This document shows positions 1-22,295 of a stretch of 64,000 nucleotides of DNA, piece after piece. The position numbers and the translations under genes are program-made. The notes under the pieces are model-generated. The model was not told the origin of the DNA, did not search any database, and saw only the letters and a list, made by a program, of their open reading frames with translations. The first letter of the stretch is position 1, and each line of letters starts with the position of its first letter. Source of the DNA: Bdellovibrionota bacterium (lineage in GTDB: Bacteria > Bdellovibrionota > UBA2428). Where the stretch lies: positions 77,650 through 141,649 of the forward strand of contig JBGSZX010000043.1 of the NCBI GenBank assembly GCA_041750195.1. Reading direction: 5' to 3'.

Positions 1-266
1 GAGCTGATGGCCCCCTCCATCATAGCGGCAACGGCCCCAATATGATCTTCATGAGCATGAGTGATCAGCCAAAACTTAGGCGAATGCTCAGAAAAGAACT
101 TTGTATAATCTGCATGAAGGCATTCAATTCCATAATCGTTAGCATTGGCAAAAACAATTCCCGCATCAACGGGAATGAGTGTCGATGAAAATTGATACAT
201 CAATGAATTCATTCCGACTTCGCCGCTGCCCCCCAAAGACCAAAATTTAAATGTTTCAGAATTCAT
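1..266 (-). CDS. rnj: RNase J family metallo-beta-lactamase-fold ribonuclease. Only the N-terminal ~88 aa are in the window; the 3' part of the gene lies beyond the window start.
   Basis: The reverse-complement translation from the ATG at 264-266 gives MNSETFKFWSLGGSGEVGMNSLMY...WLITHAHEDHIGAVAAMMEG, which carries the MBL HxHxDH motif and an RNase J-like N-terminus. The start overlaps the upstream ORF's stop by 11 bp. Confidence 0.6.
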   Translation of the reverse strand, partial: MNSETFKFWSLGGSGEVGMNSLMYQFSSTLIPVDAGIVFANANDYGIECLHADYTKFFSEHSPKFWLITHAHEDHIGAVAAMMEGAIS

Positions 267-1788
267 ATCTCAGACTCCCTGCGACCCTATAATTTTGAAA
301 CGACTCCTTTGGAAACGGAATGTCGGAAGCCACAGTGGCAGGAATCCAGCGCCTTTCGCCTTCAAAACTAATTTTTGCGACCATCTGGTCTTCGATTTGG
401 TATTGAGAACCAAGCTCCATCCACAAAATTCTATCGTCTCGCCTTGTCCCAGGCAATCCACGGTGCATCTGCTTTTTTAAACCCATCAATGCTGGAAATT
501 CAAACTTCTCCCATTTTATTGTCAGCCCAAAACTTCCCGCGATTTCCAATGTCATAATTGACCATGGCAATACCTCGGGTTCAATATGGAACTTATAGAT
601 GGCCATCAAATTAGGAAATGCTATGCTTGGTGTCTTGAGCACCAAATGAAAACGCGGCCAAAGTTGTGCGCCGGTTACGGAGAATCGATTGTCCATAAAG
701 CCAAGCAGAACATTTATCTCGCCTTCTCGAGCCTGTTTGACTATGAGATTATAAGCCGCGCCCCAATTCCAAAGCGTCTCGCTTAAAATATCTTCCAGAA
801 AGGAATATCTAGAATAACTAATTTCAAGAAACGCTGAAGAAGACGTCGTATCTTGAAAGTAAATTCTATTGTTTCCTCCAATCCGAGTCTGCCCCCAAAG
901 AGTAGGAAGCCAAGTTTCTCGAGAATAAAGTCCTTCTAGTTCAAAACGCCTCGAAAAGACCTTCCAACCAACATTTGCCTTTCCTTCGAGAATTTTTACT
1001 TCGGCCCTTTGTGCCACACTCCCAGATGGAATCCACTCAAGGTCCTTTGAATACTTTGCATCAATTGAAAGTGCCGTATCTGGAGAGAAGGAAACGACAT
1101 GCTTCTGCCTGTGATCCCACAGAAATACATTTTTTCTTTTAGGATCAATCCAATATTCCGGTAAAAAACTAGCGCGATGCCAAGTTGAGGCAGACTTAAC
1201 AACTCCCTCAATTGTTCCTGAAATATCACTAGCTATTGAAGATTCACCTTGTGAAGCCAAGGAAGAACTTAATGGATTTCTATCGTAAACAGATCGAATT
1301 TCTGCGTTAACATTTAGACCAGACTCAACTTCAAAGTACCAAGGATGCTGATCGGCCAAACTCATGCAAGGTGCCAATGCTAGTTCCAGAGAATCAATTT
1401 TACTGCCAATATAAATAGCCGAATCAAGAGCTTCATGACAACTTTCCTGACACTCAAAAACATTAGGCGCTTGCGCTCTCCACTTCTGTATCAAGGCCTC
1501 CAGGGCAAATGCGGCAGATTGACCACACTCAGGACGACTCTCCTTTTTTAGCTCTCCCCAAAGATTCGAAAGTCTGTTTTCGATATCAATAAGTTTTGAT
1601 TTCAATAAGATTGACTCGAAACTTTTTAGTTTATTATCTTTATTTTTTACTTCGTTCGAGCGAGACCCGGGCCACCCTTGAATGAGGTGCCTTAGTTTCT
1701 GAGAACTTTCTTCGCCGCCATTTGCACTTGCAAGCGACGCAAAAACAAAAGCAATAAATAAAAAATAAAGTTTACTCCTTGCCATCAT
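256..1788 (-). CDS. Hypothetical secreted protein, probably an outer-membrane beta-barrel with an N-terminal Cys-containing periplasmic segment
   Basis: 510-aa ORF with an N-terminal signal peptide (MMARSKLYFLFIAFVFASLASA) and five Cys within the first 120 aa. The body is rich in alternating hydrophobic and aromatic residues. It ends in the aromatic ...RYEF typical of OM beta-barrels. It overlaps the upstream ORF by 4 bp. Confidence 0.55.
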   Translation of the reverse strand: MMARSKLYFLFIAFVFASLASANGGEESSQKLRHLIQGWPGSRSNEVKNKDNKLKSFESILLKSKLIDIENRLSNLWGELKKESRPECGQSAAFALEALIQKWRAQAPNVFECQESCHEALDSAIYIGSKIDSLELALAPCMSLADQHPWYFEVESGLNVNAEIRSVYDRNPLSSSLASQGESSIASDISGTIEGVVKSASTWHRASFLPEYWIDPKRKNVFLWDHRQKHVVSFSPDTALSIDAKYSKDLEWIPSGSVAQRAEVKILEGKANVGWKVFSRRFELEGLYSRETWLPTLWGQTRIGGNNRIYFQDTTSSSAFLEISYSRYSFLEDILSETLWNWGAAYNLIVKQAREGEINVLLGFMDNRFSVTGAQLWPRFHLVLKTPSIAFPNLMAIYKFHIEPEVLPWSIMTLEIAGSFGLTIKWEKFEFPALMGLKKQMHRGLPGTRRDDRILWMELGSQYQIEDQMVAKISFEGERRWIPATVASDIPFPKESFQNYRVAGSLRYEF

Positions 1789-3272
1789 CTAAGCCCCGAA
1801 ATTTTTTTCTCAAAACTCGATAAGCTTGCCTTTACAACTCTATCTTTGTTTAAATTCAATCGAATTGTTTTGAGTTTATAACCATTCAGAAGATCTAATA
1901 GCTTTTTTTTGTGTTCGCTATTCTGCGCCAAACTACTTGAGTATTCAATTTCGCTAAGTAGCACATCACGCACTCGATCTGAGCTAGTCAGCTTTTCTAA
2001 ATTTTGACGTTTGTAATCAATCAGACGGCCCACAGCTTCCAATCTCTGAGACGTCTGAAAAGAATAGCGCCTTACCCAATCCCAAGCTTGCTCGGCTTCA
2101 AAACTTTGTTTTTTTCCTTGAAGATATTGCGCAAACTCATAGAGCGTTTCATCTCTATAAATAGAATTAAAGCTTTCCTCAAGAAGATCCTCAAAATCGT
2201 TAACGCTAACCTGTACTTCTCCCTGTATCCGTGAGGCCGAAATTAACTTCCTGAGCTTCGCTTCGAGAATTTTTTCACCTGAAATTTCTTCCATCCCCGG
2301 TGCTTCAAAGCCAAGAGAAAAATATCTATACGCCTTAGGCCACCGCATACCATGATACTCGTTATTCGCGACTTCAAAGAATTCACTGGCCACAATGGTT
2401 TCACTGCGAGCCATTTTTAGCAAAATTGAATAGGACCTAATTTCGGCAGCTTCTGAAAAGTTGCCGACACGCGCTAACTCTTCTGCCAAAGAAATCATAA
2501 AATTTCCCGCAATTTTTCCCGCTTCTGGGCCCTGTGACTTGCTCGATTCAAAATAGTCTCGACAAACACGGCGTATATTCTCCGTTGAACTTCCCCAAAT
2601 ACTAACCCATTCTTTGACAAGCATATCTGCCGATTCATCATCACCAAATTTTTTGATCATTGCCTGTGAGAAGGCGTAACCTTCAACCTTCTTAATGGGG
2701 TGTAATTCTCTACGAGCCTTCAACAGTGCGGCTACAGCTTGAAGATCGTCAGCATCTTTTGCTCCAGGCGCCTTACCCAAAATCCAAAGCCACCATGCTC
2801 CGTGCGCCTCAGAAAGTAGCGCCTTTTGAAGAGGATGAGCGCGCAAAAACCTAGAATAGACTGGAAGAAGATCGGGCCAACTAGCTTGCGAACTAAAAAA
2901 ATTTGCCTGCGTCGACTCCAGGAGAATCCCCCAAAGAGCTGCATCCACCAAAGAAGGATCTCCAACTTTCCTTAACTCACCCAGAACCAGCGCCGCGCCC
3001 TGGGGCCCCTTTCGTAAATACCACTCGACTTTTATTTGATCCGACGAAATTGTACTTGCCTGAGAGGCAAAGGCGCTTTGCGGTTTAAGAAAATCGGAAT
3101 GGGCGTTTCTTCTTGTGAGAGCCCATTGATCTTCAATCTTTGAACTAAAGATCATATTTTCATATTGGGAGATGTGATCCTCGAGTGTGGCGCCAACCGG
3201 CACCATTCCCAACAACAATTGTGTGGATAAACATCGCGATAAAACTGATTTAGCAGGAATAGCCCTCCTCAT
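1785..3272 (-). CDS. Hypothetical protein, predicted mostly alpha-helical, W/L-rich, 495 aa
   Basis: Long ORF whose start and stop overlap both neighbours by 4 bp (translational coupling). I recognised no catalytic motif. Confidence 0.55.
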   Translation of the reverse strand: MRRAIPAKSVLSRCLSTQLLLGMVPVGATLEDHISQYENMIFSSKIEDQWALTRRNAHSDFLKPQSAFASQASTISSDQIKVEWYLRKGPQGAALVLGELRKVGDPSLVDAALWGILLESTQANFFSSQASWPDLLPVYSRFLRAHPLQKALLSEAHGAWWLWILGKAPGAKDADDLQAVAALLKARRELHPIKKVEGYAFSQAMIKKFGDDESADMLVKEWVSIWGSSTENIRRVCRDYFESSKSQGPEAGKIAGNFMISLAEELARVGNFSEAAEIRSYSILLKMARSETIVASEFFEVANNEYHGMRWPKAYRYFSLGFEAPGMEEISGEKILEAKLRKLISASRIQGEVQVSVNDFEDLLEESFNSIYRDETLYEFAQYLQGKKQSFEAEQAWDWVRRYSFQTSQRLEAVGRLIDYKRQNLEKLTSSDRVRDVLLSEIEYSSSLAQNSEHKKKLLDLLNGYKLKTIRLNLNKDRVVKASLSSFEKKISGLR

Positions 3273-3673
3273 GATCTATTTCCCTCCAATATTTGAGGAA
3301 TATCATATTCGACCAAGGCAATAGAATCTTCGATGCGTTGACGTATTTTAAGTTCTTCAGAACTTGCGAACTTTTTCTGAAAACTTGGCTGCCGAAATAA
3401 TAATTTCGCTCGCCCAAGATATGATATCGCCGATTTTTCTTTTCCAGAATAAGCGCTCACAACAGCCGCAATTAAATATGATTGAATTCTACGCTCTGGA
3501 GACGCCTGTGGAGTAATTTCTATATTTAGTTCGGAAATCGCCTGAGCCACATCAAACAAGCCTTTTTTCCCTAGCTCATCAAGGCCCGCTAAAACGGGAT
3601 CTAAAGCTTGCGCGTAGGTACCCATCGAAAAAGAAAGCGACAAACCTAAGGCCACAAGATGCAAGAGCCTCAT
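3269..3673 (-). CDS. Hypothetical small periplasmic protein (134 aa) with a signal peptide
   Basis: N-terminal MRLLHLVALGLSLSFSMGTYAQA signal-like sequence. ATGA-type 4-bp overlaps on both sides. Confidence 0.5.
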   Translation of the reverse strand: MRLLHLVALGLSLSFSMGTYAQALDPVLAGLDELGKKGLFDVAQAISELNIEITPQASPERRIQSYLIAAVVSAYSGKEKSAISYLGRAKLLFRQPSFQKKFASSEELKIRQRIEDSIALVEYDIPQILEGNRS

Positions 3674-4308
3674 CTGACACCAACCTTATTGTCTTCGATT
3701 GACGTTAAAACCAAATCTGGCTCCGCAGAGCTACTCTGAGACCAGGGTGTTTTATTTTGGAGTGTCATGAGAATTTTTTTAGAATTTTTTCTATCAACTG
3801 CACCAATGGGAAGTTTGGCATTATAAAAAACTGTTTTTTTGCTACTAGCAAATGGATTAAGTGAATCGAGCTTTTCAACTTCAGCCTCTACGTACAGAAT
3901 TGAGACATCTTTTGATTGATATGGCAACCATACGGAGTACCACTTCAGCGCCCATTGCTCACCTTCTGGAATGCGCAAGTCCTGCTGAGCCTCGACACCA
4001 TCAATCGAAACCAGCTTCACAGACAGTGCCTTCAGCTTTTGCGATGGACGCTTAGACCAACGTAAGAAAATTCGACTTCCATGTTCAACACTAAAAATAA
4101 TTTTGGGAGAAGCTTGATTTGGGAGTCCAAAATTCTGGAGCATCTGACTTCTATGCCGTCTCAAATCGGTCTGTGCTCGCATGAATCTTTCGGATACAAA
4201 GTTCTGACTTAAGGAAAATGAAGCGGAGCTTAACAATGCCAGCATTCCTAATAGAAATTTTCTGAGCCTGCCAAGAGCAGACAACCTCCCGAACAATCTT
4301 TCGGACAT
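3670..4308 (-). CDS. Hypothetical signal-anchored or exported protein (212 aa)
   Basis: Has one N-terminal hydrophobic segment (LLGMLALLSSASFSLS). It starts 1 nt after the dacB stop. Confidence 0.5.
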   Translation of the reverse strand: MSERLFGRLSALGRLRKFLLGMLALLSSASFSLSQNFVSERFMRAQTDLRRHRSQMLQNFGLPNQASPKIIFSVEHGSRIFLRWSKRPSQKLKALSVKLVSIDGVEAQQDLRIPEGEQWALKWYSVWLPYQSKDVSILYVEAEVEKLDSLNPFASSKKTVFYNAKLPIGAVDRKNSKKILMTLQNKTPWSQSSSAEPDLVLTSIEDNKVGVR

Positions 4309-4309
4309 G

Positions 4310-5863
4310 CTATCGAGCGCCCTTCTCTAAACTATCCTTGATAGCGCCAGGCTCTACGCTCATTGGCGCTTTGCGATTAAATTCGGCAAGCGCCTGTCCA
4401 AAATAATTTTGCCATTTCATAAGGTCTCTGGTGCTTTTCTTAAGATCATTCATCATAACGGCAAAAGCTAGAAGCTCCCCGCCTTGGCTTTGAACAACGC
4501 CAACAAGTGCCGCTACACCATCCAAGGAACCTGTTTTCGCTCGAAGCCGACCGAAGGCCTTGCTTCCCTTCATTCGATTTTTCAACGTGCCATCACGGCC
4601 TGCTATCGGTAAAGACGAGAGAATCTCTGGGAGGACTTCGAAATCTAAGTAGGCCATGTTGATCAGATCAACAAATTGATTAGCACTCATTTTATTTTTT
4701 CGTGTTAATCCCGAACCAGAAACTACTTTGAGGCCCGTTGACTTTATGTCCATTCTTAAAACTTCTTCATTTAAAACTGCGAGACCTTTTTCAGCTGTTC
4801 CAGGGGCTCCCTTGATTTCTTTTCCCAAAGTTTTAATCAAGACTTCAGCGATAAAGTTATTCGAAAATTTATTCATCAAGGTTACGATTTCCCGCAGTGG
4901 CAAACTTCCTTTAGAGGCAACCTTAACTGCCGACAAGGGTCTTGTTTTTCGAATAATTTTACTCGAGTCCGAAAATTCTACGCCTTTCTGCTCCAAAAAA
5001 TATTTAAGGGCGAAACCAGAATAGATTGCTGGCGACAAGACATTAAAATACTGAAGCTGCTCGGACCAACCTAAGGGCATGTTGCCCTTTACTTCGACAA
5101 CATCTCCAATATCGCCAGCATCGCGTCGCCTTGCCTCAATTTGGTACTTAGTTTTAGTTCCGCTTGTTCGAGCCGTATTTTTAATTTTGATATAACCAGT
5201 GTCGGGCTCAACAAATACTTTTACAGGATCGCCTTCTTTGTCTCCGGGCCTAAAATAAACCGTTGTGGTATTGTAGTTAAAACTAAGAGCTCCGATGGGA
5301 GCATTGTAAGGGCGATCGGTTGACGTCTTAAGTCGTTCTTCGCCGTAGCGCTCTTGATCAAAGGCAGAATCATCAACAATAATATTTCCGTTTACCTTTT
5401 TAATCCCGGTTCTCATGACGTCACTAGCCAACAAAAACATTCGCTCACTCACTAGTGAAGGATCGCCCTTTCCTTCCAAAAACAGGTCTCCATTCAAAGT
5501 CCCGTCTTTAAGCGATTTTTCGAAGTAGACGTTTGTGTCATAAGTGAAATCAGGGCCAAGCTTTCTAAGCGCGACGATAGCCGTCAAAAGTTTTACGGCT
5601 GATGCAGGCACGAGAAGCTCTTTGGGATTTATAGAAAATAGCTCTTCCTGACGTGATAACGAAAAAACCCGCACACCAAGAGAGGCCTTGTCGAGCTTAT
5701 CATTCTTAAAAATATAGTTTAAACGACTCTGAAGAGCCTTAATGTACAATTCATCCGTAGCATTGGCCTTCCCTGTCGCTGAGGAAGAACAACAAACAAG
5801 CAAAAATATATAAAACGCTCGCTTTGTGAACCCCCGCATCACAAGATTCATTAAAACCTCCAT
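4310..5863 (-). CDS. dacB: D-alanyl-D-alanine carboxypeptidase/endopeptidase, PBP4 (peptidase S13) family
   Basis: Signal peptide present. The three penicillin-binding motifs are all there: SxxK (PASAVKLLT), SxN (KFSNNFIAE) and KTG (RAKTGSLDG). Length and order match the PBP4 family. Confidence 0.8.
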   Translation of the reverse strand: MEVLMNLVMRGFTKRAFYIFLLVCCSSSATGKANATDELYIKALQSRLNYIFKNDKLDKASLGVRVFSLSRQEELFSINPKELLVPASAVKLLTAIVALRKLGPDFTYDTNVYFEKSLKDGTLNGDLFLEGKGDPSLVSERMFLLASDVMRTGIKKVNGNIIVDDSAFDQERYGEERLKTSTDRPYNAPIGALSFNYNTTTVYFRPGDKEGDPVKVFVEPDTGYIKIKNTARTSGTKTKYQIEARRRDAGDIGDVVEVKGNMPLGWSEQLQYFNVLSPAIYSGFALKYFLEQKGVEFSDSSKIIRKTRPLSAVKVASKGSLPLREIVTLMNKFSNNFIAEVLIKTLGKEIKGAPGTAEKGLAVLNEEVLRMDIKSTGLKVVSGSGLTRKNKMSANQFVDLINMAYLDFEVLPEILSSLPIAGRDGTLKNRMKGSKAFGRLRAKTGSLDGVAALVGVVQSQGGELLAFAVMMNDLKKSTRDLMKWQNYFGQALAEFNRKAPMSVEPGAIKDSLEKGAR

Positions 5864-5904
5864 AAGTCTCCATTAAAGCACACTTTTTAGCTATTCTAAG
5901 GTCT

Positions 5905-7413
5905 ATGCGAAACATTCTCTATACCCTCATTTTGATTCCACTCATTTTTTCATGCACCAAGCAAAAAATAAGTGACTCTGACACCTTAATTCTAGGCATT
6001 GAAAGTGAAGTGAAAAATCTAGACCTTCGAAATTCAATGGATATGAACTCTTCTCAAGTTATCAGTTTGTTTTCGCAAAGCCTTCTACAGATAAACAACG
6101 AGATGGTTCCCGAAACCGACCTCGCCCTGTCATTCGACGTCAAAGATGCAAAGGTGTTTAGTTTTGAACTTCCAAGTGATGCCATTTTTCATGACGGAAA
6201 AAATCTAACATGTGATGATGTTTTGGCCTCTTTTCAACAAGCCTCAAGTGAGGGTTCTCGCATCAAAACGGCCTTCGAAGATGTGAAATCTTACACGTGC
6301 CCTAGTCCTACAAAATTTGTCATAGAACTCAATAATCCGAAAGCTTCTTTTCTTGCCGGTGACGTTCCCGCTGTTAGAATTATGCCAAAGGAATTGGCGC
6401 TGAGCACCACTGAGGCTCCGCCCATTGGATCAGGTCCCTACAAATTTCTAAAACGAGAAAACAGAGACATTATTTTCGAACGATTTGACAAGTTTTCTCG
6501 GTATAAAGATGGCAAAAAAATAACCTCTCCTTATTTTTTCAAAACTCTTATCATCCGAACTGTTCAAGATCCAACGACCAGATGGCTCTCATTAACCTCT
6601 GGAGATATCGATGCCCTTATCAATGCTATTTCGCCGCAAAAAGTTCTGGAAGCAAAGACGACAAAAGGCCTTGTTGTCTACGAAAAGCCAGGCAACACGT
6701 TTCAATATTTAGGATTCAACTTAAGACTTCCAAAGTTCAAAGACATTCGGGTCAGACAAGCAATCGCCTATGCTATCGACCGCGAAACCATCATTCAGCA
6801 CAAGTTATACGGCCTTGCCTCGCTAGCAACATCGGTCCTTTCGCCTCTAAATTTTTATTATAAAAAGGATTTAGAATCTTACAAATATGATCCGGAAAAA
6901 TCAAAAGCTTTGCTAAAAGAGTCGGGCATTAAAAACCTTGAAATTGAATTTAAAATCTCATCGGATAGAGACATCAACTCCATAATGATGGTGATCAAAG
7001 AGCAATTAGAAAAAGTGGGAATCAAAGTCACCTTAAGGCCCTATGAATTTGCAACATTTTTTTCGGACGTACAAAAGGGCAATTTTGAAATGTTTTCCCT
7101 TCGCTGGGTTGCGGTCACGGAACCCGATATCATGCATAAAATCTTTCATTCTTCCCAAGTTCCCCCTGGAAGAAATCGCGTTTATTTTTCGAATAAGGAA
7201 TTAGACGATCTCGTCGATCGCGGAGCTCGAGAAGCTGACGTCAACGCTAGACGCGACCTTTACTATAGAGCACAAGATATTGTTGCCAAAGAGCTTCCTT
7301 ACATTCCTCTGTGGTATCCCAGCAATGTCGCAATAACTTCCACAAGAATAAAAGATTATGAACTTAGCTCTATCGGAACTTGGCATTCACTCTTAGAGGC
7401 CAGAAAAGAATAA
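5905..7413 (+). CDS. ABC transporter substrate-binding lipoprotein, family 5 (oligopeptide/dipeptide/nickel type)
   Basis: Lipobox (LIPLIFSC) at the N-terminus. The 502-aa length and overall sequence character fit SBP_bac_5-like periplasmic binding proteins. Confidence 0.65.
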   Translation: MRNILYTLILIPLIFSCTKQKISDSDTLILGIESEVKNLDLRNSMDMNSSQVISLFSQSLLQINNEMVPETDLALSFDVKDAKVFSFELPSDAIFHDGKNLTCDDVLASFQQASSEGSRIKTAFEDVKSYTCPSPTKFVIELNNPKASFLAGDVPAVRIMPKELALSTTEAPPIGSGPYKFLKRENRDIIFERFDKFSRYKDGKKITSPYFFKTLIIRTVQDPTTRWLSLTSGDIDALINAISPQKVLEAKTTKGLVVYEKPGNTFQYLGFNLRLPKFKDIRVRQAIAYAIDRETIIQHKLYGLASLATSVLSPLNFYYKKDLESYKYDPEKSKALLKESGIKNLEIEFKISSDRDINSIMMVIKEQLEKVGIKVTLRPYEFATFFSDVQKGNFEMFSLRWVAVTEPDIMHKIFHSSQVPPGRNRVYFSNKELDDLVDRGAREADVNARRDLYYRAQDIVAKELPYIPLWYPSNVAITSTRIKDYELSSIGTWHSLLEARKE

Positions 7414-7415
7414 TC

Positions 7416-8315
7416 ATGAGCAGCACGCGCCTAACATCGGGGATGCTCCCCATTCTTCTCGTCGACGACGAAGAAGAAATTCTAAAATCCCTACGAAGGG
7501 ATCTTAGGCGTAACGCTATTGTTGAATATGAGACCGACCCCCTTAAGGCCTTAGAAAAAATCAAACACAATGAATACTCAGTCATTCTAAGTGACTTAAA
7601 AATGCCAAAGATGAACGGGCTGGAATTGCTAAAAAAGGCCTTTGAGATTCAGCCAAATTGCCAGCGAATCTTGCTAACTGCTTTTCTAGATCTTGCAAAC
7701 CTTCCTGATACGATTAACCAAGCTAGACTAAACTTTATAATGACTAAGCCCTGGGAACCTGACGATCTCAGAGGTATTGTTGAAAATGCTCAACGTAGCA
7801 ACGAACTCGACCGGGAAAATCGCGAGCTCCGAAAGCTTGCACTTGTTGATAGCCTCACGGGCGTATCAAACAACAGATATTTTTGGGAGCGTTTGGATTC
7901 CGAGTTTTCAAGAGCCAAACGATACGGCCGTCCTCTTTCACTTATCATGAGCGACGTCGATGACTTTAAAAAATTTAACGACGAGCATGGCCATCTCTAC
8001 GGAGATAAAGTTCTCCATGATTGTGCGCAATGCATGGAAATGGGGAAACGAGGAGCCGATACCGTGGCACGATATGGCGGCGAGGAATTTGCAATCATTC
8101 TTCCAGAGGTGACCAGGCCAAAAGCTATAGAAATTGCGTCCCGCCATTTGCAAAGTGTTCGAGCCTCAACAGAAGTGAGCATGAGCTTTGGAGTGGCAAC
8201 CTATCCCGAAGACGCGAGTAGCACCACTGAACTTGTAGACAAGGCAGACCGTGCCCTCCTAAAAGCCAAACAAACCGGAAAAGGCAAAGTGCTAAGTGCC
8301 TTGGATTTGGATTAG
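7416..8315 (+). CDS. Response regulator with a receiver domain fused to a GGDEF diguanylate cyclase domain
   Basis: The N-terminus has a REC domain (LLVDDEEEIL...ILSDLKMPKMNGLELL). The C-terminus has the GGDEF active site (RYGGEEFAIILPE) and a DxD-type (DDFKKFNDEHGH) region. The likely ATG at 7416 lies just after the upstream stop; the ORF track begins at 7380. Confidence 0.8.
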   Translation: MSSTRLTSGMLPILLVDDEEEILKSLRRDLRRNAIVEYETDPLKALEKIKHNEYSVILSDLKMPKMNGLELLKKAFEIQPNCQRILLTAFLDLANLPDTINQARLNFIMTKPWEPDDLRGIVENAQRSNELDRENRELRKLALVDSLTGVSNNRYFWERLDSEFSRAKRYGRPLSLIMSDVDDFKKFNDEHGHLYGDKVLHDCAQCMEMGKRGADTVARYGGEEFAIILPEVTRPKAIEIASRHLQSVRASTEVSMSFGVATYPEDASSTTELVDKADRALLKAKQTGKGKVLSALDLD

Positions 8316-8329
8316 GAGAATTAACAAGC

Positions 8330-9115
8330 ATGGGACATGCACACGCGCTTTATTTTTCAGGAGCAGCCACCCACTTAAATTCTAGCAAACTAGAACAAAA
8401 TGATTTTGATTCTTCAACTTTGGCGCATCTGCGTGCCTTGCGAATAAAAAAGGGCGAATTGATTTCCTTCTTAAGTGGTTCCGGTCATAAAAGTTTCTGC
8501 AAATGCACAAACCACAATCCTTTCGAATTTGAGATTCTTAAAACTCATTCGTACAAACAGCTTTCCCCCAATTTAATCCTGGGGCTGGCATTGCCCAAAA
8601 AAGATGCCCTTGCACAAGCCCTCACACAAAGTACCGAAATTGGCCTAGGTGGCTTTCAGCTTTTAAGGAGTCAGAATTCGGATCCCTCCATAAAAAGCAT
8701 GGATAAAATATTCCCGCGCTGCCAACGAATCATCGAAGCGGCAGCAGAACAGTGCCAGGCCCCATTTCTGCCGAAATTGTCGCCTGAGATTGCATCACTA
8801 GAAGCCTTTCTTAAGGAAATTTCGTCTCAACAAAACTCGCTTGTCGTCTGGGCCAACGAAAACCTTTCATCATTAGGACAATACGGAATCCCGAACATTC
8901 AAGCGACCTCACAATCTCTGCGCGAGACATCAAAAATTTTTTTATTGGTTGGACCCGAAGGTGGCTGGACCAAAGATGAATGTAAAATAATTGAGGCGCA
9001 TCAAGCCATTTATCCACTCGCACTTGGCCCGCAAATACTTAAGGTGCCCACCGCATGTGTTAGCGCCATCACCTATCTGCGGCAGTTCGTTGGAGCGCCT
9101 TGGACCGAAACTTAA
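8330..9115 (+). CDS. rsmE: 16S rRNA (uracil1498-N3)-methyltransferase, RsmE family
   Basis: C-terminal LLVGPEGGW motif typical of RsmE (SPOUT-fold methyltransferase). Length 261 aa. GGAG ribosome-binding site upstream. Confidence 0.65.
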   Translation: MGHAHALYFSGAATHLNSSKLEQNDFDSSTLAHLRALRIKKGELISFLSGSGHKSFCKCTNHNPFEFEILKTHSYKQLSPNLILGLALPKKDALAQALTQSTEIGLGGFQLLRSQNSDPSIKSMDKIFPRCQRIIEAAAEQCQAPFLPKLSPEIASLEAFLKEISSQQNSLVVWANENLSSLGQYGIPNIQATSQSLRETSKIFLLVGPEGGWTKDECKIIEAHQAIYPLALGPQILKVPTACVSAITYLRQFVGAPWTET

Positions 9116-9136
9116 TTCTGCGGTATTCTTCTAACT

Positions 9137-9637
9137 ATGAATTCCACCCCTAAAGCATCGATGTCGAAATCGATACCCGAATCGTGGCGAAAAGCTTTCG
9201 ACTTGGCTCAAAAAGCTCATGCTGAAGGAAAAACTGTTGTCACAACCAACGGATGTTTTGATTTGCTTCACAAAGGGCACGTTAGCTATCTACGAGAAGC
9301 CAAAAAACAAGGTGATTTTCTTTTTGTAGGAATTAATGCAGACGCTTCCGTTCGCGCCATCAAGGGCCCTTCTCGCCCCATCAATTCTGAATCAGATAGA
9401 GCCTATGTTATAGAAGCTCTCGAAATGGTGGATGCCGTTTGTGTTTTCGAGGAAGAGACTCCCGAAAATCTTCTTAGAGCCCTCAAACCAAATGTGCACG
9501 TTAAAGGCGCTGATTGGAAGGGAAAAAACATTCCAGAAGAATCTATCGTCAAGGAATGGGGCGGCCGGGTTCATTACGCCGGTTTTGTGGACGGCTACTC
9601 AAGCACAAAGATCATTGCAGCTTCTAAGAAAAGTTAG
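9137..9637 (+). CDS. D-glycero-beta-D-manno-heptose 1-phosphate adenylyltransferase-like cytidylyltransferase (HldE C-terminal domain / RfaE domain II type)
   Basis: VVTTNGCFDLLHKGHVSYLREAKKQGDFLFVGINAD is the nucleotidyltransferase (H/T)xGH signature as found in HldE domain II. 166 aa. Confidence 0.7.
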   Translation: MNSTPKASMSKSIPESWRKAFDLAQKAHAEGKTVVTTNGCFDLLHKGHVSYLREAKKQGDFLFVGINADASVRAIKGPSRPINSESDRAYVIEALEMVDAVCVFEEETPENLLRALKPNVHVKGADWKGKNIPEESIVKEWGGRVHYAGFVDGYSSTKIIAASKKS

Positions 9638-9690
9638 AAAAAATTTAAAAAACTATTGTTCTTCGGGCGTAGCAAAGATACAAAACACCC

Positions 9691-10293
9691 ATGTCTAAAC
9701 TTATCTTGATCCGTCACGGCCAATCCCAATACAACCTCGAAAACCGATTCACAGGATGGATCGACAGCCCCCTCACGGAAAAAGGTATTCAAGAAGCGGA
9801 ATCAGCGGGTGACGCTCTTAAGGCCGCTGGCTATCACCCACAAATTGCCTTTACCTCTGCGCTTCAGAGAGCACAAAAAACACTCGATATTATTTTAAAA
9901 AAACTAGATCTCTGCAAGATTCCCATTACAAAAAACGAAGCCTTGAACGAGCGTCACTACGGCGATCTCCAGGGAAAAAACAAAGCCGAAACCGCAGAAG
10001 AATTTGGCGCTGAGCAAGTTCATATTTGGCGAAGAAGTTTTGATGTGCCCCCACCGAATGGTGAAAGCCTCAAGACAACGGCCGAAAGAACGCTCCCGTA
10101 TTTTAATGAAAAAATTATGCCTGAGCTACAGAAAGATCAAACCATCTTAGTCGTAGCTCACGGAAACAGTCTTCGATCTATCGTGATGGAAATCGAAAAT
10201 TTAACACCTGAGCAAATTCTAAAAACCGAAATCGCAACAGGTGAAGCCTGGGTTTATGAATACAAAAACGGTGCGTTTAAAAAATATTGCTAA
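9691..10293 (+). CDS. gpmA: 2,3-bisphosphoglycerate-dependent phosphoglycerate mutase (histidine phosphatase superfamily)
   Basis: N-terminal LILIRHGQSQYNLENRFTGWIDSPLTEKG carries the RHG catalytic motif and is GpmA-like. At 200 aa it is somewhat short for the family. Confidence 0.7.
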   Translation: MSKLILIRHGQSQYNLENRFTGWIDSPLTEKGIQEAESAGDALKAAGYHPQIAFTSALQRAQKTLDIILKKLDLCKIPITKNEALNERHYGDLQGKNKAETAEEFGAEQVHIWRRSFDVPPPNGESLKTTAERTLPYFNEKIMPELQKDQTILVVAHGNSLRSIVMEIENLTPEQILKTEIATGEAWVYEYKNGAFKKYC

Positions 10294-11048
10294 AAACTTT
10301 TTTCAAGTAAAACGCCCAAACTTGGGTTTGCCGCCATAACATCAAGCTGTATAGAAAGCTTCGCAATTAAGTCTATTCTTGCTCCCACAAAAATGTGGTA
10401 CGTTGCCGTGGTATGCGGCCCTACACTGATGCCTGATGCTATCACTTCAGAGTTTGCTGTTGAGTTGCCGACCAAAAATCCTGCACCAAAGTAAGGCTGC
10501 CAAAGAATTAAATCTTTCGTTGCTTGTGCCGCAAATCCCATAACATTTGAAGATAAATCTCCAAACACATTCACATGCGTGAATCTAAAATCCACGCTAA
10601 AGGCCACACCTTTTTCTTCGTCGTTATAAAACGCCCATTGAGTTCCAAATCCATAAGTTTGAATAGCATCAAAAACTCCCCCCAAACCAAGCGAAGCACT
10701 CAATTTGATATGATGAGGAAATTCGGCGCCCAACCAAAACCGAGGAACAGGTGTGATATTGGGAGCCACGGCGCGCTGATCGCCAAGTGACAATATGTCT
10801 CGTTTTAAAACGAAGCCCGTTTCTAGGCCCAAGTTAAATCCCAATGGACCCTCTGGACTTAAAGAGTGTGCTGTCCAAGAGCGATGACTGGAAGGAAAAA
10901 CAATTTTTTCCGTAATATTTTTGACGTCGTCTATACTTAAACTACCCGACAAACTCGCAGCGTGAAGCTTGGCGCTTAAAAAAGACGCCAGAAGAGCAAC
11001 GCTAACAAGAATAAAATTTGAGTGGCATCGTGCTATTATTTTAAGCAT
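10290..11048 (-). CDS. Hypothetical small outer-membrane beta-barrel protein
   Basis: Signal peptide present. Alternating hydrophobic pattern. C-terminal ...LLEKSF ends in an aromatic residue. Its start codon overlaps xerC/D's start divergently. Confidence 0.5.
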   Translation of the reverse strand: MLKIIARCHSNFILVSVALLASFLSAKLHAASLSGSLSIDDVKNITEKIVFPSSHRSWTAHSLSPEGPLGFNLGLETGFVLKRDILSLGDQRAVAPNITPVPRFWLGAEFPHHIKLSASLGLGGVFDAIQTYGFGTQWAFYNDEEKGVAFSVDFRFTHVNVFGDLSSNVMGFAAQATKDLILWQPYFGAGFLVGNSTANSEVIASGISVGPHTTATYHIFVGARIDLIAKLSIQLDVMAANPSLGVLLEKSF

Positions 11049-14531: not shown

Positions 14532-15890
14532 TTAGTTTTTTAAATTCGTGATCTCACCGTCGTCACACTGATAAGAAAACTTGGTTTCCACAGGATTATT
14601 TTGAGAATCAATGATCTGATGCTGAACCTGCAACGGCTTCATGACCTTTTTTGGAAATCCATTTACCTTAAAGCATCTTGATTCACGCTTTATGTAGCTC
14701 GCGACCGTACTATTTTTATCTAAAAGATTGTTTGAGTTAACACCTGGGTTGTTTGTAAGAATCATTTTAGAGGGTGAAAGCTTGACTATTTGATTGTCAA
14801 TGACAGCGTTAGACCTAACATAGTCCAAGTCAGAGCCGCTACTACCGAAGCTTTTCCCCTTGTCGAGGTCACAATAGCCTCTATTTCCGTTTCTTGATCC
14901 CAAATATACCGAGGGATAGTTAACAGTCACAAGCTTTGGAATTTTTACTGTTATCCCAAAAACTTTTTTTGTTTCAACGATCCACTCTTTTTTTGTTCCA
15001 TCAAATTTATCATAATAAAAATAGTTGTTAGAAACTAAATTTGATTGAGGGGATTGATGCCGGATGGTCCCACCCTCCCCGCAGTTGCGATACAAATAAA
15101 CCCCACCGTTATGCAAACTTGAAAATTTATTGTTCGCAATAACGTTATTGGCAGATCCATCAACGGCAATTAGCTCGCGTTTGCTAGAGTTTGCATGAAT
15201 GCGATTGTTCTTGATCACATTATATCCAGATTCCGTATCCAAATATATATTTACGCTATCAGTACTTCCCTCAATGAGTGAATTCAAAAGACTGACTCGC
15301 GTCGTCCCCGGACTAACATATAGAGGAATGCCACCTGCCGCAATAAGATGCAACTTGTTGAGAGTAATTCGTGTAGGTGCTGCATCCTGAGCTCTTTTGG
15401 TGTGCCCCTTGGATTGAGAAGATTTTTTAACTTCAAGTGCCTCACCATTTGCACCCATCCCCTGAACTCGTATACCGCCCTTTATGCTACAATCTCTAAT
15501 TGTTATGTCAGAGGGGCGATCCCAAACATTGCCGGCTCCCTTGATTGATGTAATCAGAATCGCCTGCGGACGATTGGCTACAATAATATTTCCGCCATTA
15601 CAATCTATGGTAACTCCCGACGCCTCGGAGCCCTTTAGAATAATTCGCTTCCTAACAACATCTGATGATCTTAATTTAAGATCACAGGACAAAGAGACAT
15701 CTTTTTTCCCGTCAACGGCCGGGTCCATTAGCACTTTTTGCAAGACGCTATCGCTGCACTCTTCCGCCCGTGCTTCTGCGACGAGCCCAATTGGCGTCAA
15801 CACAGCGCTCATTAAGAAAGTAAAAGTGATTGAAAATATTTTTTTTGAATTCATTTGCGTACCCTTTACCAGTGCAGCCTCTGGGACCAC
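14532..15890 (-). CDS. Secreted right-handed parallel beta-helix (pectate-lyase-fold) repeat protein
   Basis: Signal peptide present. Repeated Asn-ladder segments (NNRIHANSS, IANNKFSS, VSNNYFYY) are typical of beta-helix repeats. Confidence 0.55.
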   Translation of the reverse strand: MVPEAALVKGTQMNSKKIFSITFTFLMSAVLTPIGLVAEARAEECSDSVLQKVLMDPAVDGKKDVSLSCDLKLRSSDVVRKRIILKGSEASGVTIDCNGGNIIVANRPQAILITSIKGAGNVWDRPSDITIRDCSIKGGIRVQGMGANGEALEVKKSSQSKGHTKRAQDAAPTRITLNKLHLIAAGGIPLYVSPGTTRVSLLNSLIEGSTDSVNIYLDTESGYNVIKNNRIHANSSKRELIAVDGSANNVIANNKFSSLHNGGVYLYRNCGEGGTIRHQSPQSNLVSNNYFYYDKFDGTKKEWIVETKKVFGITVKIPKLVTVNYPSVYLGSRNGNRGYCDLDKGKSFGSSGSDLDYVRSNAVIDNQIVKLSPSKMILTNNPGVNSNNLLDKNSTVASYIKRESRCFKVNGFPKKVMKPLQVQHQIIDSQNNPVETKFSYQCDDGEITNLKN

Positions 15891-20702: not shown

Positions 20703-22295
20703 TTAAAAAATACTGTCTTCGACATCAACTTCTTCTTCAGAGTTAACAATCCAAAGGGTTCCGGTTCTTTGATCGCGGTCAATTAACAGCGCCTTAGCTT
20801 TCGCAGAATTTCCCACATTAATTGTAATCAGAGCTCCAGGACGAGGACCTACGCCAATCGATGGAAATCGAATTCCCATCAAACCATATTCGGCAGTATG
20901 GACTTCCGCGCCCTCCTGCAATGGAACCAACCTGGTTTGCTCTCGCTCTTCTGGACCAATCGTTTCTTCATGAATCGCCAGCGGAGTAATTCTAAACGAT
21001 CGGTTGACGATCAAATCTCCAGCCTGAACTTCTCGAAACGCTTTAACAACCGTGGCTCTATTGCCCTCAACCTTTAAAGTTCCCAACCAGTTCACACGAT
21101 AATAAGTCGAAAAATCAATATTAATGGTTTTGATTTTTACGATTGGAAATATCCCATCGGCCAAACTCGTCTTAAAGCTGTCGCCCTCTCGATAGAAAAT
21201 TTTCCCAGATGAATTAAATATTTTTGGAATCTCTCCAACACTATCTGGCTTGCTATATAACAAAAAATATTGAAAAGGGGGATGAGGCGCCTGAATCTGC
21301 ATCCGAAGAGTTGCATCAATAAACTCTAAAAGAGTTTTTTCTTTATCCATTTTTGTGAGGGGATAAAGCGCCACATTGCTCGCATCAGAAATATCAGACT
21401 TGTACGCTAGCTCCGGAGCGGAACCTGGATTTCCTGGTTTAAAATCCAATGTCATTCCGGTTGATATGATGTGTGGATTCGTAATCGATGCATTCAAGTG
21501 CCAAATTTTGGGCCATAAAAAGGGCGTTCCAAAAAGCCTCTCCGAAACTTTCCATAAGCTATCTCCCCGATGAACGTTGTATTCCTTGTCGACCATAGGC
21601 CCTGCCCATCGCACCCAGTTTGCATCACTCATCTGTGGCCTCAGTGGAACTCTCCAAAATTTATCTGAAGGAGGCAGCTGATTCCCGGGTTCATCAGACA
21701 AATCAGAACCAAGGCTTCCGGCCTGAAGCTGTTCGGCTTGCTCTAATCGTTTTTCTAAAGCTTGGATGTCGTCTGGCATAGCCATAGGATCTTCCATCAA
21801 ACCACTGCCATCTGAATTGCTGTCTTCCAAATTCGTCGGTTGTGCTAGCAACGGACTTGGAGCGACGGGCTGTTTTACCGCGGGGCTAACGACTTCCATT
21901 TGATCTTCTTCATCTAAATTTTCCGTTTGAGCGGAAGAAGATTCGGATTCCGAATCCGATTTAGCCTCTTTGGTATCGGCCATCTGATCAAACTCTTCTT
22001 CAAGTGCATCGTCACTAAGAGCTTCTTCTTCACTCGTGTCAGACTTTGTGTCGGCCTTCGCCTCCAGATTACTTGCACTTTCACCCAATTCTTCCTCGGC
22101 TTCAGATACTTCTTCTTGTGCCTCTGCCATATTCGAATTTTTCTGGGCCTCTTCAGTCGCTGAAGAGGCAGAATCCTCGGATGATTCTAGATCTGGAAAA
22201 TCCTCAAACGGCGATTCTTCGTCTTGAGCCAAGCCACGGCCTGAGAATGCAAGGGCTAAGACAAAAATAGATAATTTGAGAAATTTAGTTTTCAA
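20703..22295 (-). CDS. Secreted protein with an acidic low-complexity N-terminal region and a LysM peptidoglycan-binding domain
   Basis: Signal peptide present. Long D/E/S-rich stretch. LysM-like YNVHRGDSLWKVSERLFGTPFLWPKIWHLNASITNPHIISTGMTLDF. Confidence 0.6.
   Translation of the reverse strand: MKTKFLKLSIFVLALAFSGRGLAQDEESPFEDFPDLESSEDSASSATEEAQKNSNMAEAQEEVSEAEEELGESASNLEAKADTKSDTSEEEALSDDALEEEFDQMADTKEAKSDSESESSSAQTENLDEEDQMEVVSPAVKQPVAPSPLLAQPTNLEDSNSDGSGLMEDPMAMPDDIQALEKRLEQAEQLQAGSLGSDLSDEPGNQLPPSDKFWRVPLRPQMSDANWVRWAGPMVDKEYNVHRGDSLWKVSERLFGTPFLWPKIWHLNASITNPHIISTGMTLDFKPGNPGSAPELAYKSDISDASNVALYPLTKMDKEKTLLEFIDATLRMQIQAPHPPFQYFLLYSKPDSVGEIPKIFNSSGKIFYREGDSFKTSLADGIFPIVKIKTINIDFSTYYRVNWLGTLKVEGNRATVVKAFREVQAGDLIVNRSFRITPLAIHEETIGPEEREQTRLVPLQEGAEVHTAEYGLMGIRFPSIGVGPRPGALITINVGNSAKAKALLIDRDQRTGTLWIVNSEEEVDVEDSIF

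Follow-up and report, generated by a model that had tools for sequence, protein, structure and literature searches.

Gene organisation of the dacB-rnj locus

The window, meaning the whole analysed stretch of 64,000 nucleotides from a Bdellovibrionota bacterium, begins with the 5' end of an RNase J gene, preceded in the direction of transcription by dacB and four open reading frames that are designated here O2 to O5 (Table 1). The gene sizes of the four ORFs (212, 134, 495 and 510 aa) and all the junctions agree exactly with those given in an initial annotation of this DNA: dacB and O2 are separated by a 1-nt gap, O2/O3, O3/O4 and O4/O5 share 4-bp ATGA overlaps, and the O5 stop codon (258-256) lies beyond the rnj ATG (266-264), which falls within Tyr-Glu codons of O5 and gives an overlap of 11 nt. 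The N-terminus encoded by rnj in the window is of the metallo-beta-lactamase/RNase J type with a HAHEDH motif, and its orthologues carry RNase_J_b_CASP and RMMBL domains (PF22505, PF07521). Further neighbours at this locus and its equivalents include SBP_bac_5, RR-GGDEF, RsmE, Dtd and peptidase M14 proteins. Promoter-like and terminator-like sites in positions 1-6200 showed no excess over shuffled sequence.

Table 1. Features of the dacB-rnj region, in window positions
Feature	Position (nt)	Strand	Description
Promoter-like hexamer pair TAGAGA-17-TAGAAT	5893..5921	-	Directly upstream of dacB; consensus match only
dacB (517 aa)	5863..4310	-	ORF; PBP4 of housekeeping type, N-terminal signal peptide
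DacB SxxK	5602-5591	-	Invariant motif
DacB SxN	4864-4856	-	Invariant motif
DacB KTG	4537-4529	-	Invariant motif
DacB clade-specific C-terminal tail (residues 499-517, after ...FNRK)	4313..4369	-	Alignment
O2 (212 aa)	4308..3670	-	ORF; exported, signal peptide
O3 (134 aa)	3673..3269	-	ORF; exported small TPR-like helical protein
O4 (495 aa)	3272..1785	-	ORF; exported all-alpha TPR solenoid
O5 (510 aa, C-terminus RYEF)	1788..256	-	ORF; two-domain exported protein, probable outer-membrane barrel
rnj 5' end (RNase J, metallo-beta-lactamase fold)	1..266	-	Cut by window edge

Conservation, gain and loss of the O2-O5 module

Besides the window, 12 genomes or metagenome contigs, all from Bacteriovoracaceae-like bacteria, carry the block dacB-O2-O3-O4-O5-rnj in the same position, and it was found nowhere else; its carriers are a small group of Bacteriovorax-like bacteria that are uncultured. 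When 1.84 billion cluster representatives were searched exhaustively, only 13 relatives of O5 were returned, and all those whose context was examined stand in the dacB-O2-O5-rnj arrangement. An indexed homology search with O5 alone, or with a four-sequence O5 alignment, gave no match because the O5 of the window is clustered there under a 253-aa fragment. In each of the 13 genomes the five ORFs are uninterrupted and agree in order, sizes and overlaps; the rnj/O5 overlap is kept in 12 of the 13 loci, and O2 starts between -53 and +5 nt from the dacB stop in every one. DacB is 50-76% identical among these genomes and the flanking proteins 43-76%. Synteny across related genomes had been proposed as a check on the block, and it holds in 13 of 13 module genomes; the arrangement appears to be best explained as a conserved operon.

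The four module families were connected by iterative searches, which joined the orthologues of O4 (13/13), O5 (13/13), O3 (12/13) and O2 (9+3+1) with zero off-family matches among about 6000 decoy ORFs. Alignments limited to four genomes, among them loci L004 and L005, could not be relied on for O2, O3 and O5, since their hhalign E-values of 0.05-0.3 were at the level of shuffled controls; these three families were bridged only by the larger orthologue set. The idea that O2-O5 are in part or wholly chance ORFs or decaying remnants could draw on the lack of any database name or Pfam domain and on the fact that three of them are singleton clusters. However, in 13 genomes the four frames are open and keep their lengths, signal peptides, motifs and start-stop overlaps, which effectively refutes it; its probability is close to nil.

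The module proteins diverge far faster than their operon neighbours: the median pairwise identity is 16-22% for O2-O5, against which DacB reaches 60% and RNase J 47%. Even in the closest pair with DNA available, the window and L003, the four module proteins are only 40-54% identical and DacB 73%, so that synonymous sites are saturated. In loci L006-L011, from related lineages, dacB directly adjoins rnj with no O2-O5 between them, and in L087, which is nested among the module lineages, O2-O5 are gone. The distribution shows a pattern of insertion and loss, best explained by the entry of the clade-restricted O2-O5 into a housekeeping string dacB-rnj(-dtd) that is older than they are; support for a clade of the module loci and L087 is 36%, and the trees do not fix the time of the gain. 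Since dacB and rnj stand together without the module in L006-L011, and L087 has lost it, PBP4 does not need O2-O5.

DacB is a full-length PBP4 with a clade-specific tail

DacB is a class C low-molecular-weight PBP of peptidase family S13, matching PF02113 (Peptidase_S13) at 2.8e-96 with 323 bits (cut-off 22.8) and TIGR00666 (PBP4) at 1.5e-77 with 261 bits (cut-off 107.8). The intact SxxK, SxN and KTG motifs and the signal peptide described in the initial annotation were borne out; the motifs, which are S88-A-V-K91, S334-N-N336 and K443-T-G445, do not vary among four orthologues. Full-length colinear matches were obtained to B. subtilis PBP4a (3e-61), Actinomadura R39 (2e-50) and E. coli PBP4 (1e-39); residues 68-471 align in one stretch to residues 23-426 of E. 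coli PBP4, and residues 54-474 to residues 18-442 of PBP4a. As these alignment spans leave no space for a deletion, the full three-domain architecture, domain III included, is probably kept. The predatory Bdellovibrio endopeptidases are without domain III (PMC3276566), and DacB matches Bd3459 and Bd0816 at only about 1e-8 (2-3.5e-8), in fragments. Judged by its alignments, DacB is of the housekeeping full-length PBP4 type and not of the predatory type.

The protein ends in a tail in which a variable stretch comes after the family consensus TP(L/M)xEKP. This tail is present in 12 of the 13 module loci and in the module-less L087, and it is missing from the module-bearing L096, from L006-L011 and from the outgroups.

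O2, O3 and O4 as exported proteins

A signal-peptide-like N-terminus was found in all 52 proteins (O2-O5 in 13 genomes), with neither a second TM segment nor a consistent lipobox among them, in keeping with the initial annotation of the set as an envelope operon. O2 had been regarded as signal-anchored; a cleavable signal peptide is more likely, as its orthologues show AxA-type sites (e.g., VRA↓DS and AGA↓TS) and lack any further hydrophobic stretch. The remainder of O2 comprises a conserved ERF..LRRHR helix, after which come beta-like segments that include an invariant Trp123. A HigB-like match to O2 (E=0.0028) was dismissed, being sub-threshold, confined to 1 of 13 orthologues and belonging to a protein that is exported.

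The absence of recognisable homology, claimed at first for all four ORFs, stands for O2 and O5, which have no homologue in Pfam, NCBIfam or PDB profiles, and does not stand for O3 and O4, which by their profile matches and helical repeats are TPR proteins. O3, with a likely signal peptidase site AQA↓LD after residue 23, is represented by orthologues that match TPR_14 (3.9e-5), TPR_16 (1.2e-4) and TPR_4 (8.7e-4), the window copy itself giving a sub-threshold TPR_MalT match (0.006). In O4 the confident helical-repeat core covers residues ~190-470 (nt ~2705-1863). Neither protein has a conserved lipobox across the 13 genomes.

O5 as a probable outer-membrane barrel

O5 has a signal peptide at residues 1-22 (site ASA↓NG), a conserved RHL..WP motif at residues 33-40, a helical N-domain reaching to about residue 170 with cysteines at 88, 113, 117 and 141, and a beta-rich C-domain (171-510) that terminates in Y-E-F. 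A Sec signal peptide and the lack of an inner-membrane TM helix are common to 13/13 orthologues. The beta-amphipathic fraction of the C-domain is 0.30-0.36, compared with 0.34 for the OmpA barrel and 0.25 for OmpF; soluble controls gave 0.13-0.23, but fimbrial beta-sandwiches reached 0.28-0.29. A profile-based counter of amphipathic strands was rejected because it found 19 segments in O4, the all-alpha control.

An aromatic residue in the last three positions, together with alternating hydrophobics, was observed in 11 of the 13 orthologues: nine end in F, L004 ends in YDF-L and L090 in YVF-ER, the exceptions being L099 (YEL) and L089 (GTW). As a C-terminal beta-signal this pattern is confounded, since the Tyr codon contains the rnj ATG, which constrains the terminal Tyr. 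The Pfam OMP_b-brl family was matched by one orthologue of 13 (E=0.011), and PDB profile searches were negative, with no confident match to a known OMP family. The composition is poorer in Gly, Tyr and Asn than that of classical OMPs, and a single-sequence AF2 model had a pLDDT of 35. The suggestion that the last protein of the block resembles an outer-membrane barrel is plausible, and O5 is described here as a probable outer-membrane beta-barrel.

Comparison with known systems and possible functions

Several known systems offer partial parallels. In E. coli, the outer-membrane TPR lipoprotein NlpI is an adaptor of the endopeptidases PBP4, MepS, MepM and PBP7. Its KD for PBP4 is 177 nM (PMC7049810). 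Like NlpI, O3 and O4 are periplasmic TPR proteins that could present a PBP4-type enzyme near the outer membrane, and their genes follow that of PBP4 by three genes or fewer, with co-translation. Unlike NlpI, they have no lipobox, so that anchoring would need the O5 barrel, and four components stand in place of one; no NlpI chain came up in the PDB profile searches of either protein at E-values up to 10. In E. coli, nlpI is not known to be linked to dacB. In the pairs BamD with BamA, SprE with the T9SS translocon and PilF/PilW with secretins, a TPR protein partners an outer-membrane barrel, but the scores to these proteins equal those to unrelated eukaryotic TPR proteins; BamD, SprE and PilF/PilW are lipoproteins, which O4 is not, and O5 is without an Omp85/POTRA, secretin or SprA signature. 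MipA, an E. coli outer-membrane beta-barrel, is a scaffold for MltA and PBP1B (PMC7049810). The role proposed for O5, that of a barrel scaffolding peptidoglycan enzymes, is similar, although O5 is twice as long, has an additional helical domain and shows no match to the MipA family in Pfam.

The reading put forward here, tentatively and with rather less than even confidence, is that O2-O5 form an outer-membrane-anchored periplasmic scaffold, produced when and where the housekeeping PBP4 is produced, which would place PBP4 or other enzymes of peptidoglycan close to the outer membrane or hold them back there. O2-O5 are exported by Sec. Most likely, O5 would form a beta-barrel in the outer membrane and have its disulfide-stapled helical domain in the periplasm, and O4 and O3, being without a lipid anchor, would dock on O5 and offer peptide-binding grooves; O2 may be a further periplasmic subunit or a client. 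The scaffold would then be a non-homologous analogue of NlpI, and the presence of two TPR proteins among O2-O5 fits such a periplasm-to-outer-membrane assembly. The gene structure, the conserved block, the export signals, the TPR character of O3 and O4, the rapid divergence and the pattern of insertion and loss are shown by the data, and the O5 barrel, the formation of a complex and any link to PBP4 are inferred. A trans-envelope module tied to PBP4 is possible. For the link to PBP4 may be counted the start of O2 near the dacB stop in 13/13 loci and the DacB tail in 12/13; against it, L087 keeps the tail without the module, and L096 has the module and no tail. The more specific version, in which O2-O5 encode a hitherto undescribed regulator of the housekeeping PBP4 whose TPR adaptor pair, O3 and O4, is tethered to the outer membrane through a dedicated O5 barrel and not through a lipid anchor, with the DacB tail as the peptide bound in a TPR groove, is rather unlikely. 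The identities of 16-22% for O2-O5 and 60% for DacB also count against the scaffold reading, since they fit poorly with an extensive conserved interface.

Tight coupling of the genes had been taken as an argument for stoichiometric co-expression of one complex. This argument fails because the overlap with the gene of the cytoplasmic RNase J is equally tight and conserved, being in fact the tightest and most conserved of all; coupling in this operon is therefore no sign of a physical or functional association. It is also conceivable, and given the same tentative weight as the scaffold, that O2-O5 constitute an autonomous envelope complex unrelated to PBP4, which landed in a constitutive housekeeping operon and is expressed from there; as a surface or outer-membrane structure, such a complex might serve prey contact, transport or outer-membrane homeostasis. 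Synthase-dependent polysaccharide exporters combine a periplasmic TPR protein with an outer-membrane barrel, and a periplasmic TPR protein encoded beside a probable barrel of ~330 residues recalls the PgaA, BcsC or AlgK-AlgE type. That O4 and O5 are such an exopolysaccharide export pair is nevertheless improbable, as the 8-10 kb around each locus contain neither a synthase nor a glycosyltransferase nor a polysaccharide-modifying gene, and neither Pfam nor PDB profile searches gave similarity to PgaA, BcsC, AlgE or AlgK.

The initial annotation also drew an analogy with the predatory DacB enzymes of Bdellovibrio, under which O2 and/or O3 would confer immunity to, or inhibit, the DD-endopeptidase encoded next to them. 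As with Bd3459/Bd0816 and Bd3460 of B. bacteriovorus, a dacB-family gene is followed in one transcription unit by exported helical-repeat proteins, in a lineage of predatory bacteria; the module genes are translationally coupled directly downstream of dacB, and Bd3460 is likewise small, exported, of helical-repeat type and encoded downstream of bd3459 (PMC4686830). The analogy breaks down on the defining features. DacB aligns without interruption to PBP4 and probably has the full architecture of the housekeeping type, and the housekeeping Bd3244 is not a target of Bd3460 (PMC3276566, PMC4686830). The repeats are TPR and not ankyrin: an exported ankyrin-repeat protein of ~23 kDa, as in the Bd3460 type, was not found, since no ankyrin family matched O2-O5 or their orthologues (0/52 proteins). 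Furthermore, there are four genes including one for a probable barrel, and related lineages have the same DacB with no O2-O5. An immunity function is, on this evidence, distinctly improbable.

Significance

Whatever its function, the module represents a clean natural case of a gene block inserted in an operon with start-stop overlaps kept on both sides, as well as an example of envelope proteins that diverge far faster than their operon neighbours. O2-O5 are a well-defined family set in uncultured organisms, useful for annotation, and as such resolve no open question as yet. If the module tethers or regulates PBP4, outer-membrane control of peptidoglycan hydrolases would have arisen more than once and with different parts, a barrel anchor and TPR proteins being used here and lipoproteins in E. 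coli, and a regulation of PBP4 by O3, O4 and O5 would be an independently evolved, non-homologous counterpart of the NlpI/Lpo class, whose members regulate peptidoglycan enzymes from a tether in the outer membrane. It would also furnish a first handle on cell-wall housekeeping in the Bacteriovoracaceae, a predatory group far less studied than Bdellovibrio.

Gene organization of the dacB-rnj region

On the minus strand, window positions 1-5863 carry five consecutive ORFs and the first part of a sixth. The first, dacB, encodes a PBP4-type DD-peptidase and the sixth, rnj, RNase J, while the four ORFs between them, O2 to O5, are together referred to as the module. The junctions agree throughout with the description in the initial annotation: one gap of 1 nt, three overlaps of the ATGA type and one of 11 nt. 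GC content varies little along the region (0.38-0.48), an Rfam search of it returned no match, and shuffled sequence contains promoter-like and terminator-like sites at least as often. Only one such site is notable, a hexamer pair at 5921-5893 directly upstream of dacB. The SBP_bac_5 lipoprotein gene (5905-7413) and dacB have divergent starts 41 bp apart (5864-5904), a spacing which implies that at least one promoter lies inside coding sequence, or that dacB starts at the downstream Met9. A response-regulator/GGDEF ORF (TTG at 7380) overlaps the end of the lipoprotein gene by 34 nt (7380-7413), which probably means that the gene really begins downstream of this TTG. Elsewhere in the window, an 816-aa protein (52226-54676, minus strand), matched by an AsmA family profile over its N-terminal ~100 residues only, is another large envelope-biogenesis candidate.

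Features of the window, with protein identities and orthologue links
Feature	Position	Strand	Description	Median pairwise identity, 13 genomes	Orthologues linked by iterative profile search
dacB	5863-4310	minus	517 aa	60%	
DacB C-terminal tail	4313-4369	minus	residues 499-517		
O2	4308-3670	minus	212 aa	17%	groups of 9, 3 and 1
O3	3673-3269	minus	134 aa	22%	12/13
O4	3272-1785	minus	495 aa	20%	13/13
O5	1788-256	minus	510 aa, C-terminus RYEF	16%	13/13
O5/rnj overlap	256-266	minus	also in L003, L004, L005, L086, L090, L091, L096-L100		
rnj start	ATG 266-264	minus	metallo-beta-lactamase protein with HAHEDH; cut by window edge	47%	
252-aa ORF	10290-11048	minus	no Pfam match at E<=1e-5		
452-aa ORF	14532-15890	minus	no Pfam match at E<=1e-5		
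530-aa ORF	20703-22295	minus	no Pfam match at E<=1e-5		
719-aa ORF	49033-51192	plus	no Pfam match at E<=1e-5		

Conservation of the module

A DacB scan of a genome collection gave 80 loci, all Bdellovibrionota-like, the closest being from an "uncultured Bacteriovorax sp." MAG (72% identity); 12 loci were added by a metagenome scan and seven more through relatives of O4 and O5. Besides the window, 12 independent genomes or contigs (loci L003/L085, L100, L086, L097, L098, L099, L096, L004, L005, L089, L090 and L091) share the arrangement, in the order SBP_bac_5 (divergent), dacB, the O2, O3, O4 and O5 slots, rnj and dtd. In these carriers the slots hold proteins of 180-224 aa (O2), 108-140 aa (O3; 211 aa in L091), 471-540 aa (O4) and 479-532 aa (O5), and nearly all internal junctions are 4-bp overlaps. 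Synteny, on which the initial annotation had staked its reading, is thus kept in all 12 carriers, and the block stands. Iterative profile searches, seeded from every member and run among ~6000 decoy ORFs, gave no match outside the expected slot. Taken together, the shared arrangement and these links show the module to be a vertically inherited orthologous block and not a chance run of ORFs.

An exhaustive HMMER search with O5 against 1.84 billion cluster representatives yielded 13 proteins at E<=0.001, and each one examined for context has the same arrangement. The module occurs only in uncultured Bacteriovoracaceae-like bacteria that make up a small clade. In the protein collection the window O5 was clustered under a 253-aa fragment as representative, hence indexed searches gave no self-match; the O2, O3 and O4 proteins from this genome form nameless singleton clusters in a collection of 15 billion proteins, with one NCBI contig of 206,657 bp as their source. 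The upstream neighbours (window 5905-10293: SBP_bac_5, response regulator-GGDEF, RsmE-type methyltransferase, cytidylyltransferase-like and His_Phos_1 genes) are also in synteny with those of distant module-bearing relatives (L097-L100). The module lies in a stable part of the core genome and not in an island.

DacB and the module proteins

DacB matches Peptidase_S13 (2.8e-96) and TIGR00666 (1.5e-77), and its SxxK, SxN and KTG motifs are intact, as initially claimed. Among solved structures, housekeeping enzymes match it over its full length, namely B. subtilis PBP4a (3e-61), Actinomadura R39 (2e-50) and E. coli PBP4 (1e-39; DacB residues 68-471 against 23-426), whereas Bd3459 and Bd0816, the predatory enzymes of Bdellovibrio, gave fragmentary matches only (~1e-8). 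Loss of domain III defines the predatory enzymes; Bd3244, a housekeeping enzyme, has the classical architecture (Lerner et al. 2012, PMC3276566). By this criterion and these matches, the window DacB is a bona fide PBP4 of the housekeeping kind. In this clade DacB carries a C-terminal tail after ...FNRK, with the consensus TP(L/M)xEKP and then 15-35 variable acidic or proline-rich residues, present in 12 of the 13 module loci (not L096) and in the module-less L087, and absent from L006-L011 and the outgroups. This tail is the sole DacB feature that tracks the module, albeit imperfectly, and could be a peptide ligand for the TPR proteins.

O2-O5 are unnamed in public sources, Pfam and NCBIfam gave nothing above threshold for them, and the four families are not related to one another. 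All 52 module proteins (four families, 13 genomes) have a signal-peptide-like N-terminus, with no second hydrophobic segment and no consistent lipobox. O2, earlier described as signal-anchored, more likely has a cleaved signal peptide, since its orthologues carry AxA-type sites; profile searches detected no relative of it. O4 is an all-alpha TPR solenoid: its AF2 model (pLDDT 63 overall, 70-93 over residues ~190-470) retrieved only TPR/HAT superhelices in Foldseek, and the family profile matches consensus TPR proteins at 1.3e-8. O3 is a small TPR protein, as shown by matches of its orthologues to TPR_14 (3.9e-5), TPR_16 (1.2e-4) and TPR_4 (8.7e-4).

In O5 the signal peptide leads into a conserved RHL..WP motif and then a helical region in which four cysteines (88, 113, 117, 141) are conserved. 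The C-terminal part, ~340 beta-rich residues, has the conserved motifs GxQDxR..LWPxF, PWS and HRxxPG..RxD and ends in Y-[E/D]-F. A calibrated comparison gave beta-amphipathic fractions of 0.30-0.36 for the C-domain and 0.08-0.19 for the N-domain, against 0.34 for the OmpA barrel, 0.25 for OmpF and 0.13-0.23 for soluble controls; as fimbrial beta-sandwiches score 0.28-0.29, the value denotes a beta-rich, amphipathic domain and is not proof of a barrel. One orthologue reaches Pfam OMP_b-brl (E=0.011), PDB profile searches with O5 were negative, and its single-sequence AF2 model was uninformative for fold. The C-domain is probably an outer-membrane barrel.

In 12 of the 13 loci rnj starts within the last O5 codons, T-ATG-Ax (Tyr, then Glu/Asp) being the commonest form, so the overlap first noticed in the window is ancient and conserved. 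Ten loci have an overlap of 11 nt, L003 and L091 being measured from the in-frame ATG; it is 14 nt long in L004 and 17 nt long in L090. The sole gap (29 nt) is in L089, whose O5 ends in GTW. The terminal Tyr is thereby constrained by a second frame, and the OMP-like C-terminus of O5 and the rnj start constrain each other.

Gain and loss

In the module-less loci L006-L011 and L087, rnj directly follows dacB after 14-67 nt, and the module is an insertion into this older pair. All dacB-rnj-linked lineages form one clade (200/200 bootstraps). The linkage, with dtd downstream where visible, marks this clade against L012-L082; in more distant Bdellovibrionota, among them B. bacteriovorus (L047), no rnj lies closer than 10 kb to this dacB. 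Module-bearing loci alone were monophyletic in 0/300 trees, with L087 always nested among them, which makes at least one secondary loss robust. On the 3077-bp contig of L087 (JACCDG012080743.1), rnj begins at 2395, 65 nt after dacB (858-2330), and DacB keeps its tail; the four module genes seem to have been cleanly deleted. The best tree of concatenated DacB and RNase J places L006 and L007-L011 outside a clade that unites the module loci and L087, though at only 36% support; one gain and one or two losses are the most parsimonious history, short of proof.

Possible role of the module

The block is an operon-like string of exported proteins, two of them TPR proteins devoid of a lipid anchor and one, O5, a two-domain protein with outer-membrane-protein hallmarks. 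O5 might serve as the membrane anchor of an assembly on which O4 and O3 would dock and present peptide-binding grooves, with O2 as subunit or client, and this assembly could act on PBP4 or on peptidoglycan enzymes in general. Such action has a functional precedent in E. coli NlpI, an outer-membrane TPR lipoprotein that has a KD of 177 nM for PBP4 and acts as a scaffold for several endopeptidases (PMC7049810). NlpI and O3/O4 share their TPR nature, but the lipid anchor is absent from O3/O4 and PDB profile searches found no sequence relationship; the likeness of BamD, SprE and PilF to the module TPR is one of generic fold only. By this analogy, a role as PBP4 adaptor can be proposed tentatively. 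It stands level with the equally tentative reading that the complex is independent of PBP4 in function and merely housed in a constitutive operon, because genes of unrelated function already share the operon, the module was gained and lost independently of dacB, and the divergence of its proteins far outpaces that of DacB.

The initial annotation had taken the tight coupling as a sign of one complex, an argument that does not hold, as the tightest coupling joins an envelope protein to the cytoplasmic RNase J. Its analogy with Bdellovibrio self-protection is likewise abandoned: structure matches and Pfam scans indicate a DacB not of the predatory type and no ankyrin immunity protein, the two tested features that define the Bd3459-Bd3460 pair. 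What survives of the proposed trans-envelope module is a real, conserved, trans-envelope-looking block adjoining PBP4. An exopolysaccharide TPR-porin exporter is excluded by context, with no synthase gene near any examined locus. In essence, the module would represent a new take on a familiar design, a TPR scaffold with an outer-membrane barrel, built from families without known relatives.
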